This document shows, piece by piece, positions 1 to 4,366 of a stretch of DNA of 4,612 nucleotides (within the stretch, counting starts at the first letter, position 1; each line of letters begins with the position of its first letter). The DNA comes from a virus (taxonomy: Duplodnaviria; Heunggongvirae; Uroviricota; Caudoviricetes): the IMG/VR virus record IMGVR_UViG_2671181050_000008; one strand, written 5' to 3'. A program made the position numbers and the translations under genes. The notes under the pieces were generated by a model, which saw nothing but the letters and a program-made list of their open reading frames with translations, was not told the DNA's origin and did not search any database.

Positions 1-148
1 TTGCCCCGTTTGGGAGCTCCAATTTAGGCCGTTTGAAATCAGCAATAGTCATAAATATTTTTATTGGGGTCATGAAAGCGGACAACCACGCTGGCTCTAC
101 CCTGCGCCATGAAAATGTCAATTCACATCTGAACTAATGCTCTTTAAT

Positions 149-574
149 CTAGTAACGTCTAAAATACCTAACATTTCCTTGATAAAATGCCAGTACACGC
201 TGCATAGCTTCGCTCTTCCGGCACTCGCGACAGATTATATTCAGACGCCTGTCGTAGCGGCGTATTTCGCCGTCTGGTAACGACCAGATAAGGTCCGGAT
301 CAACCACTGCAGGTTTCTTCACCTTTGCCCTTGAGAGTTTTTTGCGGGCATTTTGCCAGTCCTTACGCGCCTGTTCAGACGGGAATAACCCGTAACCAGA
401 GTTGTATACATCACCACTGGCAACCAGCTCTCTGGCAAGAACGCTCATCAGATATCTTGTCGCACCTGTCTTGGCTTCCAGTTGCCGTAACGTCTCGCGC
501 CCACTCCGGCGTACTAGCTCAACAACCTGCCCTTTAATTTTTTCTCGCTCTTCTTGTGTAAATACTTTTGCCAT
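149..574 (-). CDS. Ren-like protein with an N-terminal winged-helix-like domain (141 aa)
   Basis: ORF-track frame 149..589 starts at TTG; ATG at 574..572 is preceded by GAAGG 5 nt upstream. C-terminal ...ECRKSEAMQRVLAFYQG resembles lambda Ren C-terminus as I recall it (ECRQSAAMKRVLAVYG); a TGAT-containing HTH-like segment also matches. Lies downstream of the P-like gene, as ren does in lambda. Recalled homology, not searched. Confidence 0.55.
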   Translation of the reverse strand: MAKVFTQEEREKIKGQVVELVRRSGRETLRQLEAKTGATRYLMSVLARELVASGDVYNSGYGLFPSEQARKDWQNARKKLSRAKVKKPAVVDPDLIWSLPDGEIRRYDRRLNIICRECRKSEAMQRVLAFYQGNVRYFRRY

Positions 575-589
575 AAGCGCCTTCGGCAA

Positions 590-1360
590 TCACTTTTCCG
601 ATACAACACGGCGGGAAGAATCAGTAATCTGTCGAACAATATCCCGGTGCTTGTTCAGCTCCCGCAGCGCGGCGCAGACTCGTTCCCACTTCTGAACATC
701 ACTTTTCGCCCTGCGCAGCGCCAGGTTTGCCCTGCGCAGGGACGGAAAAATCAGCTCATCTGCTTGCGTTTCGGTAAACGATGGCAACGACTGCACAATG
801 TCCGCCACAGTTTCTGTTTTAATTTCTTCCTGTGTTGCGGCTTCCCGGACTGGTAACGCAGCACCTGCTGGCTGAGGAAAGGCCTTACCATCACTTTCCG
901 TTACCAGCGCGGCTTTCGGCTCTGCTGGTAAATTATCGCCCGGCATGCAGTAACGAAATTTACCGTTCTGATTAACGCGTGCCAGCCGCCCCGTTGCGGT
1001 TACCACCGCCAGCGTGGAAGCAACCTTGCGAGTACTGACACCGAACTTACCCGCCAGTTCCTCACACGTTTTAGCCCCATCCTGACCGATAAACTCAATC
1101 ATCATGTCTGCGGTAACTTTTTGTTCGACCTCCCCGGTCAGCATATCCTGTGCTTCAGATTTTACTGGCCGCTCTTCGGTTACCCGGGATTCACCTTCGC
1201 CAGCCAGAAACCAGGTGTGACCAGTTTTATCAACGACGCCTTTTCTTTTGAGTTCCCACAGCTCGTTGAGAACCTCTTCACGACTGATATCAAGTCGCGC
1301 GGCCAGTTCTACCGATGTGGCTTTTCCCATTGCTTTCAGTGCGTCAAATACGGTTTCCAT
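590..1360 (-). CDS. Hypothetical protein with two tandem winged-helix-like repeats and a helical C-terminal region (256 aa)
   Basis: Track ORF 590..1378 starts at TTG; ATG at 1360..1358 is preceded by GGAGGA 7 nt upstream. Two internal segments ([32 protein letters not shown] and [32 protein letters not shown]) align to each other and to the HTH-like segment of the downstream Ren-like protein. Same strand and tight spacing with flanking genes. Confidence 0.65.
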
Positions 1361-1393: not shown

Positions 1394-2059
1394 TCAAATA
1401 AAACCAGCTGCCTTCCGGCGTTCGTATTCCTGTTTCAGCCGTTCAATTGGCGTTGGCCCTTGCGGGTGTTTCGCCCCTTCCAGTTGTCGTCGCACTGGCG
1501 GAACACTCATCCCGTTACCAACATGCTTTGCCCATTTCGTCAGTTGCCGTTCCGCAAGTCGTTTTAACTCACCCTGCGTCATCTGGCGCTCAATCCCTCT
1601 GGTACGCATTTCGAGGCAGATGTGGTACAGCACAGGCTGAGGCCACGGATATTTGTCGCTTCCGTCATATCGCCAGGACTCATCACGCCAGCGGCGGTAC
1701 TCCTCCATCACAGCATCCACCGTCAGGCCAAATGGATTGGCCCCGCTTTCTGAAATCAGCGCCACAAACTCAGCCAGGTCCGGAGGCCATGTTTCACCCG
1801 CCCGGCAGCGGTCCATGCACTGGCGGCAGACCTGTCGGATTTGCTGCTCAGTCATCGTGCCAATCTGTGCAATCCAGAGCTTCGAAGGTGCGGCCCCGTT
1901 CTTCTGGGTCCAGCGGTTCGAATAAACCTCCCCCATGAGTTCCCACAGCTTCCAGACCGTTTCCGTCGCTGATAAATCCGTTTTCACGTTCCCACTGCTC
2001 ACGTGCTGCCCGAATTTCCTGAACTGCCCGTGATGCGGTGCCACCTGGTGCTGCTGCAT
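1394..2059 (-). CDS. Replication protein P-like helicase loader (221 aa)
   Basis: ATG at 2059..2057 is preceded by AAGGGGG 5 nt upstream. Several blocks match lambda P as recalled: KLWIAQIGTMTEQQ vs RQWVLAFRENGITTMEQV, WPPDLAEFVALISE vs FLPSPGQFVAWCRE, YPWPQPVLYH vs YPWKSNAHYW, MTQGELKRLAERQL vs LTDAELRRKAADEL. The first 212 nt overlap the upstream O-like ORF in another frame, so the exact start is uncertain. Confidence 0.7.
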   Translation of the reverse strand: MQQHQVAPHHGQFRKFGQHVSSGNVKTDLSATETVWKLWELMGEVYSNRWTQKNGAAPSKLWIAQIGTMTEQQIRQVCRQCMDRCRAGETWPPDLAEFVALISESGANPFGLTVDAVMEEYRRWRDESWRYDGSDKYPWPQPVLYHICLEMRTRGIERQMTQGELKRLAERQLTKWAKHVGNGMSVPPVRRQLEGAKHPQGPTPIERLKQEYERRKAAGFI

Positions 2060-2888
2060 GGTTTACCCCCTTGCTGACTGGCTTAACCTGCGCCCTGACG
2101 TGATTTACGTGACGGGCGAATTTCTGCTCCCACTGAACCTGCGTGAAAACTTTCCCCTCCGCTGCCCAGTAGTCCCGGAAAGCGGCAAGTTCAGCAGGTG
2201 TAAATTCCGGCTCCGGCAAAGCCATCCCCCACAACGCAGCCCGTCGTCGAAAATCCGGCGACGGATGCCAGTCATCGACCATCGGAAATTTCCCGATGGG
2301 TTCGCTCAGTCCATCCAGGGATGCAGGTTCTGCTGCCTGCAACGGCGTACCACTCGACTCACTGGTCGGAGCACTCTCGCGCACGTGCGCGTTATGTGTG
2401 GGGTTTAATTCTTTATCTGTATCTTTATCTGTCGTGACTCGTCGTGACATGTCGTGACATATGCGTGACTCGTCGTGACACCCCTCATTCTGTTTTCGTA
2501 ATTTTTCCCTCTCGCGCTGCGCTCTCTTGCGCTCTGCCGGGGATTTCGCGGTTTGTGAAACGTTGCCATTGTCCTCTTTCAGTACCTGGCGTTTTTCCCA
2601 TCCGGTGATTAAATCTCCATCAAGTACCCGCCCCTGCATTGCCTGTAAAATTGAATCAATTACTTCTTCCGTCACATCAAGCGCACTTGCTAAATCTTCC
2701 GTCGTGACATCAATGTGACCACGTAGTGACACGCCGTGACATGTCGTGACATTTCGTGACGCGCTCACCAGAAGGTGGATATACACTGCCATCACTGTTG
2801 CAATTGGCTGCCCTGACACCCTGGCAATTGTTCGCCACTTAGGGTCATTTGGCATGTCATGCCATAATCTGAGCCAGGCGTTAGCCAT
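1848..2888 (-). CDS. Phage replication initiator, O-like / YdaU-like replisome organiser (346 aa), carrying the origin iterons internally
   Basis: Track start at 2894 is GTG; ATG at 2888..2886 is preceded by GAGGTGA 4-5 nt upstream. Trp-rich N-terminal domain (AWLRLWHDMPNDPKW...GWEKRQ) followed by a Lys/Arg/Glu-rich linker. Sits directly upstream of the P-like gene and contains phased iterons, the lambda O arrangement. Occupies the ydaU position after the YdaS/YdaT-like genes. The C-terminal ~70 aa overlap the P-like start and may be a read-through extension. Confidence 0.65.
   Translation of the reverse strand: MANAWLRLWHDMPNDPKWRTIARVSGQPIATVMAVYIHLLVSASRNVTTCHGVSLRGHIDVTTEDLASALDVTEEVIDSILQAMQGRVLDGDLITGWEKRQVLKEDNGNVSQTAKSPAERKRAQREREKLRKQNEGCHDESRICHDMSRRVTTDKDTDKELNPTHNAHVRESAPTSESSGTPLQAAEPASLDGLSEPIGKFPMVDDWHPSPDFRRRAALWGMALPEPEFTPAELAAFRDYWAAEGKVFTQVQWEQKFARHVNHVRAQVKPVSKGVNHAAAPGGTASRAVQEIRAAREQWERENGFISDGNGLEAVGTHGGGLFEPLDPEERGRTFEALDCTDWHDD
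2403..2480. other. Candidate origin of replication: five phased iterons next to an AT-rich tract
   Basis: Iteron starts at 2431, 2441, 2451, 2462, 2472 (GTCGTGAC, one variant TGCGTGAC), spaced 10-11 bp. Adjacent tract 2403-2430 (tttaattctttatctgtatctttatct) is AT-rich with a duplicated CTTTATCTGT. In the gene's direction of transcription the order is iterons then AT-rich tract, as in lambda ori inside O. Confidence 0.6.
2701..2760. repeat. Second iteron array: six phased GTCGTGAC-like repeats
   Basis: Units start at 2701 (gtcgtgac), 2712 (aatgtgac), 2723 (gtagtgac), 2733 (gccgtgac), 2743 (gtcgtgac), 2753 (ttcgtgac), spaced 10-11 bp. Same core as the 2431-2479 array, about 220 bp away, inside the N-terminal coding region of the initiator gene. 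Confidence 0.6.
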
Positions 2889-2959
2889 ACTCACCTCTTC
2901 TGATACCGAATCTTTTTACTCACAAATTGCCGGAAGTGATCCGGTATGAATATTGCGAG

Positions 2960-3385
2960 TCAATGCACAGCCACAATATTTCCTGCAGGGCCACCACGAT
3001 TCATCTGGTTGAAACCAGCGATCGCCACTGCGACAAAATCATCAGCGTCTCTCACCAGTCGTTCCCGCGTCTCCACCAGCTCCCGAAAATAAGCTGAACT
3101 GTGGCTGCGCATTCGGGCCACCAGCAGAGGCGGCATTGCTTTTTCGATCGCTGGTAACAACGCCTGAATTTTTTTAACCGCATCAGGAGTGTCTTTCTCC
3201 ACCCAGCGGAAAATTTTCTGGGTATTGCGAGCCAGGGCTTCCGGATGGCTGTCGTCATATAATTCCGGGAACGTCATACCAAGCTCAAAATAAGCCCGGG
3301 TTATTTCAGCTGCCGGAACTTTTTCACCGTCCGGATGCGCCCAGGCATTCATCGCCATGCGGATGTGCTCATGCCTGATTTTCAT
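2960..3385 (-). CDS. ydaT: YdaT-like protein (proposed CII functional analogue), 141 aa
   Basis: ATG at 3385..3383 is preceded by GGAG 7 nt upstream. Start overlaps the end of the Cro-like gene by 17 nt. Size (~140 aa) and position between the Cro-like gene and the replication genes match ydaT of Rac-type prophages. Assignment is mainly by synteny. Confidence 0.65.
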   Translation of the reverse strand: MKIRHEHIRMAMNAWAHPDGEKVPAAEITRAYFELGMTFPELYDDSHPEALARNTQKIFRWVEKDTPDAVKKIQALLPAIEKAMPPLLVARMRSHSSAYFRELVETRERLVRDADDFVAVAIAGFNQMNRGGPAGNIVAVH

Positions 3386-3644
3386 GAATCAACTCCGATG
3401 CATTTGGTGTGTTAGCCTTGAATCCAACAGGTAAGCCGTCGGTTGGATTCGGGTAAATATCAGGCCGGAGTTCATGAGGTGTAACCTCGAAATTCGTTAC
3501 TTCAGCAACACGTAATGCTTTTTCAGGGCTGAATCTTTCATAGCCCCCCAGCACTCGACTTACATGCACCTGAGATAAACCCGTTAGCTTCCCAAACTGT
3601 AGCTGGGTGATATGTTTCTCTTTTAAATAGTCTCTTAAGTTCAT
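3369..3644 (-). CDS. ydaS: Cro-like HTH regulator, YdaS family (91 aa)
   Basis: Track start at 3650 is TTG; ATG at 3644..3642 is preceded by GAAGG 6 nt upstream. HTH segment (ITQLQFGKLTGLSQVHVSRVL) and C-terminal ELRPDI motif match E. coli K-12 YdaS as I recall it (CEELRPDIDW). First gene downstream of the divergent promoter region. Confidence 0.75.
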   Translation of the reverse strand: MNLRDYLKEKHITQLQFGKLTGLSQVHVSRVLGGYERFSPEKALRVAEVTNFEVTPHELRPDIYPNPTDGLPVGFKANTPNASELIHENQA

Positions 3645-3674
3645 AGCCAACCTTCTACGTTATGCCTCGAGCAA

Positions 3675-3751: not shown

Positions 3752-4213
3752 ATGAAAAAAACACGCGAAGTGATTGCAACTCCAGAAGCGAGCAAGAATT
3801 TAAAAGCCGCATGGAATGCAAGAAAAAAAGAGCTGAAGCTGACTCAAGAGCTGGCGGCTGAGTTGTTGGGATTCGAATCTCAAGGCACCGTTAGCCAGTA
3901 TCTGAACGGCAAGATACCGGTAAATACCGACGCTGCGCTAAAATTTGCGGCTCTGTTAAAGGTAAAACCAGAGGACATTCGAGAAGACCTTAAAGACTTA
4001 ATGAATTATGTAAGATCATCAGATACTTATGATGATAACTTTTCAGGCAAAGGATGGAGGCTGGTCAATGAAGAACAGGCAGAGTTACTTAACCTCTTCG
4101 AGATTCTACCTGCGTCAGAAAAAGCCAAACTCCTTAACCAGCTACGTGGACTAAACAAGCTCTACGAGGAAGCCTTCGAGAACATGCTGGCACTAAAGAA
4201 ACGTAACCAGTAG
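3752..4213 (+). CDS. CI/RacR-like HTH (XRE-family) prophage repressor, 153 aa
   Basis: ATG start. HTH segment LTQELAAELLGFESQGTVSQYLNGK. Divergent from the Cro-like gene across ~100 bp of promoter/operator DNA. Size close to RacR. No peptidase-like C-terminal domain is obvious. Followed by an intrinsic terminator. Confidence 0.75.
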   Translation: MKKTREVIATPEASKNLKAAWNARKKELKLTQELAAELLGFESQGTVSQYLNGKIPVNTDAALKFAALLKVKPEDIREDLKDLMNYVRSSDTYDDNFSGKGWRLVNEEQAELLNLFEILPASEKAKLLNQLRGLNKLYEEAFENMLALKKRNQ

Positions 4214-4237: not shown

Positions 4238-4270
4238 ACAAAAAAACCGACGTCTTAGTCGGTTTTTTTG
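4238..4270 (+). terminator. Rho-independent terminator, potentially bidirectional
   Basis: A-tract 4238-4246, stem CCGAC (4247-4251) / GTCGG (4258-4262) with loop gtctta, then TTTTTTT (4263-4269). Lies 25 nt after the repressor stop codon. Confidence 0.8.
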
Positions 4271-4366
4271 TGCCATAACTTCTGCAAATCAGCTGTATAA
4301 CTAATATTTTTCCCTTGAAAAAACATTTACATAGTTACCAAATCAAAAATATCATACGCCATACTG

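Follow-up and report, generated by a model that had tools for sequence, protein, structure and literature searches.

Read on its minus strand, the window, the whole stretch of 4,612 nucleotides that was analysed here, is a module of immunity and replication genes from an E. coli prophage of the Rac/lambda type. Its rightward early (replication) operon runs from a cro-like gene through cII-like, O-like and P-like genes to a DUF1627 and a DUF977 gene, which are the final two genes of the operon. The genes are as follows.

3752-4213, plus strand: cI/DicA-like repressor
3369-3650, minus strand: cro/YdaS-like gene
2960-3385, minus strand: cII/YdaT-like gene
1848-2894, minus strand: O-like initiator with a DnaT domain (PF17948, 1e-17; phrog_1408, 9e-117)
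1394-1855, minus strand: P-like helicase-loader gene, directly upstream of the DUF1627 gene in the same operon (PF06992, 6e-16; phrog_109, 8e-63; coordinates transferred from a PGAP annotation)
590-1360, minus strand: 256-aa DUF1627/YdaW-family gene (start METVF, stop TGA at 590-592)
149-574, minus strand: 141-aa DUF977/'LygF'/Ren-like gene (start MAKVF, stop at 149-151)

The O-like gene is accompanied by seven exact copies of the iteron TCGTGAC, against 0.4 expected. A Shine-Dalgarno sequence (GGAGGA) lies 8 nt 5' of the DUF1627 ATG (at 1360), and the DUF977 gene, which has its own Shine-Dalgarno sequence (GAAGG), starts 15 nt past the DUF1627 stop and shares its frame. No promoter or terminator signal above chance was detected between or after the two genes (positions 1-1500), no Rfam family matched anywhere in the window, and no Rex-like system was found within it. 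Since the DUF1627 and DUF977 genes are packed tightly behind P, with ribosome-binding sites of their own and without such promoter or terminator signals, they should be delayed-early lytic genes. Programmed read-through into a fusion protein was considered because the two share a reading frame and a 403-aa fusion is known, but was rejected, as the spacer in relatives measures 14-16 nt and the fusion proteins are single-contig variants.

Both families, DUF1627 (PF07789, which includes Rac YdaW) and DUF977 (PF06163), are already catalogued and very widespread. The 256-aa protein matches PF07789 with 328 bits (cut-off 28.1) over aa 97-251 and phrog_630 at 9.4e-136 over positions 1-252 of 253, and the 141-aa protein matches PF06163 with 99.7 bits (cut-off 22.1) over positions 1-133 of 134. 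Many complete E. coli genomes carry prophages with 98.7% identity to region 100-1400, and in a locus of this identity PGAP calls the same DUF1627 open reading frame. At least 80% of the region is present in 1,277 of 5,426 complete E. coli genomes, which puts the DUF1627-DUF977 pair in about 1,280, and some match occurs in 4,572 of them. The PGAP names are 'DUF1627 domain-containing protein' and 'DUF977 family protein', and phage records use 'ydaW' for the former and 'LygF' or 'Ren-like exclusion protein' for the latter; 'LygF' is a mere name in Salmonella genome announcements and phage annotations. The suggestion of the initial annotation that the module could be undescribed is wrong, given that thousands of E. 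coli genomes carry PF07789 and PF06163 annotations. As sequence features, the two genes hold nothing new or surprising for a phage genomicist, and the earlier observation is slightly extended by the full-length Ren homology, the three winged helices, and the one to three winged-helix modules in the DUF1627 family.

The initial annotation had described three winged-helix-like repeats across the two genes, and the letters and places of the three segments it quoted (R1, R2 and R3) proved exact. These segments and the surrounding domains are located as follows.

1196-1360, minus strand: D1, the N-terminal winged helix of the DUF1627 protein (aa 1-55), containing R1
1232-1327, minus strand: R1 segment (aa 12-43 of the DUF1627 protein)
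932-1111, minus strand: D2, the second winged helix of the DUF1627 protein (aa 84-143), containing R2
983-1078, minus strand: R2 segment (aa 95-126 of the DUF1627 protein)
593-805, minus strand: C-terminal module of the DUF1627 protein (aa 186-256), a SLPSFT..ELIFPS motif followed by a long basic helix
383-556, minus strand: Ren-like winged helix of the DUF977 protein (aa 7-64), containing R3
407-502, minus strand: R3 segment (aa 25-56 of the DUF977 protein)
317-376, minus strand: basic helix of the DUF977 protein (aa 67-86)
176-241, minus strand: C-terminal Ren motif of the DUF977 protein, NIICRECRKSEAMQRVLAFYQG (aa 112-133)

Compared as single sequences, the three segments appeared only weakly similar: in Smith-Waterman alignments against 2000 shuffles, the domains of R1 and R2 gave z 3.5 (p 0.008) and those of R2 and R3 z 5.4 (p 0.001), and the R1-R3 pair was not significant (z 1.35). 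Because this single-sequence evidence was thin, family profiles were built for the comparison, covering D1 (aa 1-58), D2 (aa 84-145) and the N-domain of the Ren/DUF977 family (RenN). Using hhalign with 40 column-shuffled controls, the D1-D2 pair reached a probability of 91% (E 1.1e-6, z 10.7), D2-RenN 94.9% (E 4.7e-8, z 13.9) and D1-RenN 88.5% (E 2.7e-6, z 15.4), with all alignments in register over 53-54 columns. The RenN profile was shallow (Neff about 2.8), since IMG/VR scans gave only copies that were 92-100% identical. AlphaFold2 predicted an H1-b1-H2-H3-b2-b3 winged-helix topology in all three domains (pLDDT 82-95), and Foldseek returned winged-helix matches at an rmsd of 1-2.6 A over 55-63 columns. 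By profiles and models, the three segments are predicted winged-helix domains that are homologous at the superfamily level. The winged-helix-like nature of the repeats was borne out by the model topology together with the profile-level homology, and so was their standing above shuffled controls (hhalign z 10-15 for the profile pairs).

The closeness of this homology bears on the explanation that the repeats are three unrelated recruitments of the winged-helix fold, and that the adjacency of the genes is an accident of mosaicism without common function or co-evolution. The sequence comparisons provide several points in its favor: identity among D1, D2 and RenN is 15-23%, and D1 and D2 match generic winged-helix families (MntR, ArsR, CARF-HTH and the MarR-like phrog_1687 at E values of 1e-5 to 1e-7, and further HTH_11, PafC and FeoC) about as well as each other. 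Moreover, a fourth winged-helix-like segment, in the O-like protein, scores against the D2 profile similarly to the repeats. Against it stands the finding that the best PHROG of D2 is the Ren N-domain, save for a MarR-like family with a lambda Ren match of its own (1.5e-10); the match of D2 to the Ren-like phrog_142 is 8.5e-4 for the domain alone and 2e-6 within the whole protein. The D2 profile also scored slightly higher against RenN than against D1, a small difference obtained with a shallow Ren profile, which would be as compatible with domain capture as with duplication. Of the proposed three paralogous repeats, homology at the profile level thus stands, but closeness beyond that of MarR/ArsR-type winged helices does not at 15-23% identity. 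Likewise, the proposal that a two-repeat Ren paralogue had been inserted here finds no support, as the similarity among the three domains is no stronger than that to generic winged-helix families.

Searches for better-characterized relatives pointed to the fold in general. Fold searches of the DUF1627 protein against PDB and of the DUF977 protein against BFVD and PDB returned generic winged helices only and no informative analogue, and a PDB sequence search with the DUF977 protein returned nothing; no solved structure was found for either family. Comparison with PADLOC models gave weak matches of the DUF1627 protein to the HTH parts of CARF/Csa3 models, and none for the DUF977 protein or lambda Ren, and NCBIfam gave HTH matches below threshold only. 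The best PDB sequence match of the DUF1627 family was ADAR1 (5e-6). Binding of Z-DNA or Z-RNA by Z-alpha domains involves two conserved helix 3 residues, Asn173 and Tyr177, and the wing residue Trp195 (numbered as in human ADAR1). In a HMMER alignment of the DUF1627 family profile to ADAR1, N173 and Y177 are replaced by Ala and the wing aromatic residue alone is kept, and the Z-alpha reading was rejected.

The anatomy of the DUF1627 protein was determined from its AlphaFold2 model and from a survey of 1.84 billion representatives, among which 184 clusters were related to the 256-aa protein, with full-length members down to about 24% identity; the family alignment comprised 36 of these clusters, down to 21% identity. 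D1 (pLDDT 84-91; H4-11, E13-15, H16-23, H27-39, E43-46, E49-52) shows the strongest conservation within the family, notably in H1/b1/H2 with a major-residue frequency of 0.72-0.83, and is acidic, its 'recognition' helix included, with a mean net charge of -2.5 across the family. It is connected through a linker that is disordered in the model (aa 56-79) to D2 (pLDDT 82-86), which is basic (mean net charge +2.8 across the family), and this is followed by a Pro/Ala/Glu-rich linker, also modeled as disordered (aa 145-180). The C-terminal region is again basic (mean +4.6 across the family), and its 48-residue helix (aa 208-255, pLDDT 89-97), which carries a net charge of +8 in the window protein, is likely an oligomerisation or binding element. 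The C-terminal module is kept in homologues down to 24% identity and is matched by phrog_11856, phrog_29124 and phrog_1888. The models thereby show a predicted beads-on-a-string protein, in which winged helices and a motif with helix are joined by disordered linkers.

This layout of two winged helices, each followed by a linker, and a terminal motif with helix recurs in diverse members of the family. Since the PF07789 model covers D2 and the C-terminus only (aa 97-251), the N-terminal winged helix and the tandem arrangement lie outside the family description. Among 150 representatives, 47 have the architecture D1-D2-Ct, 15 have D1-Ct, as exemplified by a 128-aa Scandinavium protein, and two have D1-D2-D2-Ct, the remainder being fragments. 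The D2 module is missing in short relatives and doubled in a few, so that the number of winged helices is one, two or three.

The DUF977 protein matches phrog_142, 'Ren-like exclusion protein', at 8.1e-47 over positions 1-113 of 116, and lambda Ren matches the same family at 1.6e-41 over positions 11-110 of 116. Direct alignment of the full DUF977 protein with lambda Ren gave z 9.4 against shuffles, through NIICRECRKSEAMQRVLAFY versus NLVFKECRQSAAMKRVLAVY. The model of the DUF977 protein (pLDDT 90-95) contains H7-24, H29-36, H40-53, a wing and H67-86, and its winged helix aligns to that of lambda Ren without gaps (TGATRYLMSVLARELVASG in the window protein versus TGATVTSINQAAAKMARAG in lambda Ren). 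The C-terminal motif shares 12 of 20 residues with aa 72-92 of lambda Ren (z 9.4), and the C-terminus alone matches positions 77-113 of phrog_142 at 1.4e-16; this region is of low confidence in the model (pLDDT 53-63). Besides, phmmer searches with lambda Ren recovered DUF977 proteins at about 5e-4. Lambda Ren is below the reach of PF06163, and no Pfam family joins Ren and DUF977. By sequence, the DUF977 protein is a homologue of lambda Ren over its full length and not at the C-terminus alone. The resemblance to Ren that had been noticed at the C-terminus of the third-repeat protein was thus confirmed, and on proper alignment the relationship extends over the full length via phrog_142.

The gene neighbourhoods were compared next to these homologies. 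Directly upstream of DUF977, at 78 loci off contig ends (mostly from the 80 best IMG/VR loci; 7 more lay at contig ends), DUF1627 was present in 56, an O-like gene in 10 and another gene in 12. At lambda-ren loci DUF1627 was absent (0 of 80), all 80 being off contig ends with ren directly after lambda P. A scan of one genome per species, with a single N-terminal peptide pattern as query, yielded 15 DUF1627 loci, and within the searches run the family was confined to Enterobacterales. In every locus surveyed, DUF1627 directly follows replication genes on the same strand, whatever their type. It is preceded by O and P in the window and Serratia, by YdaU and the DnaC-like YdaV in Rac as well as in E. 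ruysiae, and by a DnaT-like protein together with DnaC in Shigella phage 75/02 Stx; in Citrobacter, Buttiauxella and Scandinavium the preceding gene is a single initiator. The next gene downstream differs between loci: it may be DUF977, or encode a small zinc-ribbon protein, a membrane protein, a 689-aa protein or, by sequence reading, a putative HTH-like protein that matches only an unnamed PHROG. No Ren-like gene adjoins DUF1627 in prophages of Serratia, Citrobacter, Buttiauxella and E. ruysiae, and DUF977 is found without DUF1627 in phages HannyBb and PhiR46_1.

Behind the replication genes lies a mosaic slot, in which DUF1627 and DUF977 are independent, exchangeable cargo, often but not obligatorily paired. 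This agrees with the expectation that the two-repeat gene is variable cargo, DUF1627 being upstream at 56 DUF977 loci and other neighbours at 22. By contrast, the view of DUF1627 as an expansion of Ren is not supported, because the family has a conserved C-terminal module of its own and occurs without a Ren-like neighbour; DUF1627 is an independent family. The frequent occurrence of either gene in the absence of its partner would also be expected if the winged helices had been recruited separately and the genes had met by accident. Against such an accident stand the adjacency of the pair at the 56 of 78 loci and in the E. coli genomes counted above, its recurrence beside a DnaC-type replication module, and the short DUF1627 relative of Scandinavium, which is again located two genes from a Ren-like gene. 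Unrelated recruitment with fortuitous adjacency is considered unlikely.

With respect to function, literature searches found no functional study of DUF1627, DUF977, LygF or Ren. The classical phenotype of Ren, reportedly described by Toothman and Herskowitz in 1980, is protection against Rex exclusion. The sole functional datum found for the DUF1627 family is that overexpression of K-12 ydaW relieved the toxin RcaT of retron-Sen2, which classed it as a prophage 'blocker'; ydaW was a hit of the overexpression screen and is not clearly among the 11 re-tested RcaT blockers (bioRxiv 10.1101/2020.06.22.160242). The cro-like dicC was also a hit, and DNA-binding proteins may therefore score indirectly. 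Two-hybrid assays have shown that Rex proteins contact O and Ren, and in the same work lambda ren is described as 'likely involved in DNA replication' (Thomason et al., bioRxiv 10.1101/2021.04.19.439022).

By analogy with these systems, both proteins may be accessory counter-exclusion or counter-abortive-infection factors that bind a partner via their winged helices, a reading to which we assign a probability of roughly 0.4. The DUF1627 and DUF977 proteins would be non-essential accessory products made early in lytic growth, and their winged helices, for DUF1627 probably together with an oligomerising C-terminal helix, would bind a protein or nucleic-acid partner. Such binding could protect the developing phage against exclusion or abortive infection, with the Ren-like protein acting as Ren does against Rex, and the YdaW-like protein as suggested by the blocking of RcaT by K-12 ydaW. 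For D1, the conserved acidic face would be the site of protein binding, and D2 and the helix, both basic, would act on nucleic acid or in oligomerisation; neither protein is proposed to be a classical operator-binding repressor. The acidic and conserved H1/b1/H2 face of D1 fits a protein-binding rather than a DNA-reading surface. The exchange of genes at the slot and the non-essential nature of lambda ren likewise favor this reading. The basic D2, the DUF1627 C-terminal helix and the DUF977 helix 67-86, on the other hand, fit plain DNA binding, which speaks against the counter-exclusion reading. So do the purely generic winged-helix matches from PADLOC, NCBIfam, PDB and fold searches, the replication role suggested for lambda Ren, and the lack of a Rex-like system in the window.

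The basic charge belongs to the explanation that both proteins are sequence-specific DNA-binding regulators or replication accessory factors, whose winged helices bind the origin, the iterons or a promoter and thereby adjust the initiation of replication or delayed-early transcription, with anti-exclusion effects, if any, arising indirectly. Besides the basic charge of D2, of the C-terminal helix and of DUF977 helix 4, it draws on the position of the genes inside the replication operon, where every locus has them directly behind O/P or DnaC-type genes, on the MarR, ArsR, GntR and AspA DNA binders as closest structural or sequence neighbours, on the prediction of YdaW as a transcription factor (PMC9308461), and on the work of Thomason et al., which ties ren to DNA replication and in which Ren and O contact Rex. 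However, the genes are cargo that can be dispensed with, the same replication modules being found with and without them, DUF1627 stands beside several unrelated initiator and loader types, the winged-helix family matches are all below curated cut-offs, and D1, the most conserved domain, is acidic. Moreover, lambda ren is non-essential, plaque formation included (PMC10695390). A role as regulators or replication factors, the main rival to the counter-exclusion reading, is judged somewhat doubtful for the pair.

The counter-exclusion reading can be extended to the slot itself, which would then be a counter-defence locus where Ren-type proteins are directed against Rex-type exclusion and DUF1627-type proteins against retron or abortive-infection toxins, the variable number of basic winged helices tuning which protein or nucleic-acid sensor is bound; this generalization is speculative and improbable as it stands. 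DUF1627 and DUF977 are among the commonest uncharacterised E. coli prophage genes, those of Stx-converting phages included, and few lambda proteins other than Ren still lack a mechanism. The analysis provides a domain map for both, with Ren/DUF977 as a predicted winged helix with a short C-terminal motif, and YdaW-type proteins as a conserved acidic winged helix, basic winged helices in varying number and a putative oligomerising helix. The link of these families to the ydaW hit as a blocker of a retron toxin makes a role against abortive infection directly testable.

Compared with known systems, the window proteins have in common with MarR/ArsR/GntR-type transcription factors the winged-helix fold and weak profile matches. 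They differ in that all scores are below curated cut-offs, the N-terminal winged helix is acidic, and MarR-type dimerisation helices as well as ligand or metal sites are missing. The best Foldseek and profile matches of the DUF1627 model were ScpB, the SelB C-terminal WH1-4, ESCRT-II, DDRGK1/UFL1 and ADAR1 Z-alpha/Z-beta, which, like DUF1627, place two winged helices in series. These matches are weak (E about 1e-3, TM about 0.2) and concern each winged helix separately, and the winged helices of DUF1627 are separated by roughly 30-40 disordered residues whereas those of the solved tandem structures are packed; the likeness does not imply a functional link.

K-12 Rac YdaW (b1361) belongs to the DUF1627 family as the window protein does, has both winged helices, and is encoded at the same place, directly after replication genes (ydaU-ydaV-ydaW). 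It is about 60% identical to the window protein over the common part, and is a 186-aa truncation that, unlike the window protein, does not include the C-terminal motif and helix. Compared with lambda Ren (96 aa), the DUF977 protein is 45 residues longer, with an N-terminal extension, the additional basic helix (aa 67-86) and, at aa 87-111, an insert modeled as disordered. A CxxC stands in place of the single Cys of lambda Ren, and the DUF977 gene follows DUF1627 here whereas lambda ren follows P. Both proteins belong to PHROG 142, have an N-terminal winged helix that matches ungapped through TGAT, helix 3 and the following G, and contain the motif N-[IL]-[IV]-x-[RK]-E-C-R-x-S-x-A-M-x-R-V-L-A-x-Y, and each of their genes is the last of the replication cluster in the rightward operon, on the same strand.

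Members of the DUF1627 (YdaW) family, to which the protein encoded at 590-1360 on the minus strand belongs, were found to differ in the number of their winged-helix domains, with versions that carry one, two, or three of these ahead of the C-terminal motif and helix module (D1-Ct, D1-D2-Ct, and D1-D2-D2-Ct; examples are proteins P0341, P0351, and P0299, and locus L097 5001-5387). A weak match to the profile of the second domain, D2, as well as to Pfam HTH_Crp_2, was also obtained for a segment of the O-like replication initiator:

2637-2723, minus strand: fourth winged-helix-like segment, DVTTEDLASALDVTEEVIDSILQAMQGRVL, residues 58-86 of the O-like protein

In Serratia prophages (L088/L089 4615-5001), a protein assigned to phrog_1704, "Lpa-like transcriptional activator", is encoded between the P-like helicase loader gene and DUF1627, while in L095 DUF1627 is followed by another small protein that we read as HTH-like from its sequence and of which the sole match is an unnamed PHROG. 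The slot behind the replication genes seems to gather small HTH-type proteins from several families.

The junction of DUF1627 with the Ren-like gene DUF977 was considered as a possible site of programmed read-through:

572-592, minus strand: DUF1627 stop codon (TGA) to DUF977 start, with a 15-nt spacing that leaves both genes in one frame

Two fusions of these genes, each known from one metagenome contig, were encountered, i.e., the 403-residue P0003, in which TGA is replaced by GGA, and the frameshift fusion P0005. Rac-SA53 has a spacer of 16 nt and Shigella phage 75/02 Stx one of 14 nt, so that relatives do not keep the two genes in a shared frame, which makes programmed read-through unlikely.

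The E. coli-type replication/DUF1627 module of the window is also present, at approximately 88% nucleotide identity, in PP818812.1 ("Actinobacillus phage vB_Apl-pPE4"; database matches H2 and H42); the host given for this record looks odd, which may be due to contamination or a mislabelled prophage.

Two further features of the window are located downstream of the Ren-like gene and directly past the cI/DicA-like gene, respectively:

1-52, minus strand: beginning of a QueH-like (epoxyqueuosine reductase) gene, going by the annotation of E. coli 118UI, whose prophage is 98.7% identical
4246-4272: GC-rich hairpin ACCGAC..GTCGGT with a T-run behind and an A-run ahead, spotted by eye

The hairpin looks like a bidirectional intrinsic terminator; it was not among the signals listed by the consensus scan.

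Finally, the motif TCGTGAC occurs in seven exact copies, versus 0.4 expected by chance, which form two clusters within the O-like gene:

2432-2479: first TCGTGAC cluster
2702-2760: second TCGTGAC cluster

These copies are probably origin iterons, arranged in two arrays approximately 220 bp apart, whereas lambda has one array of four iterons.
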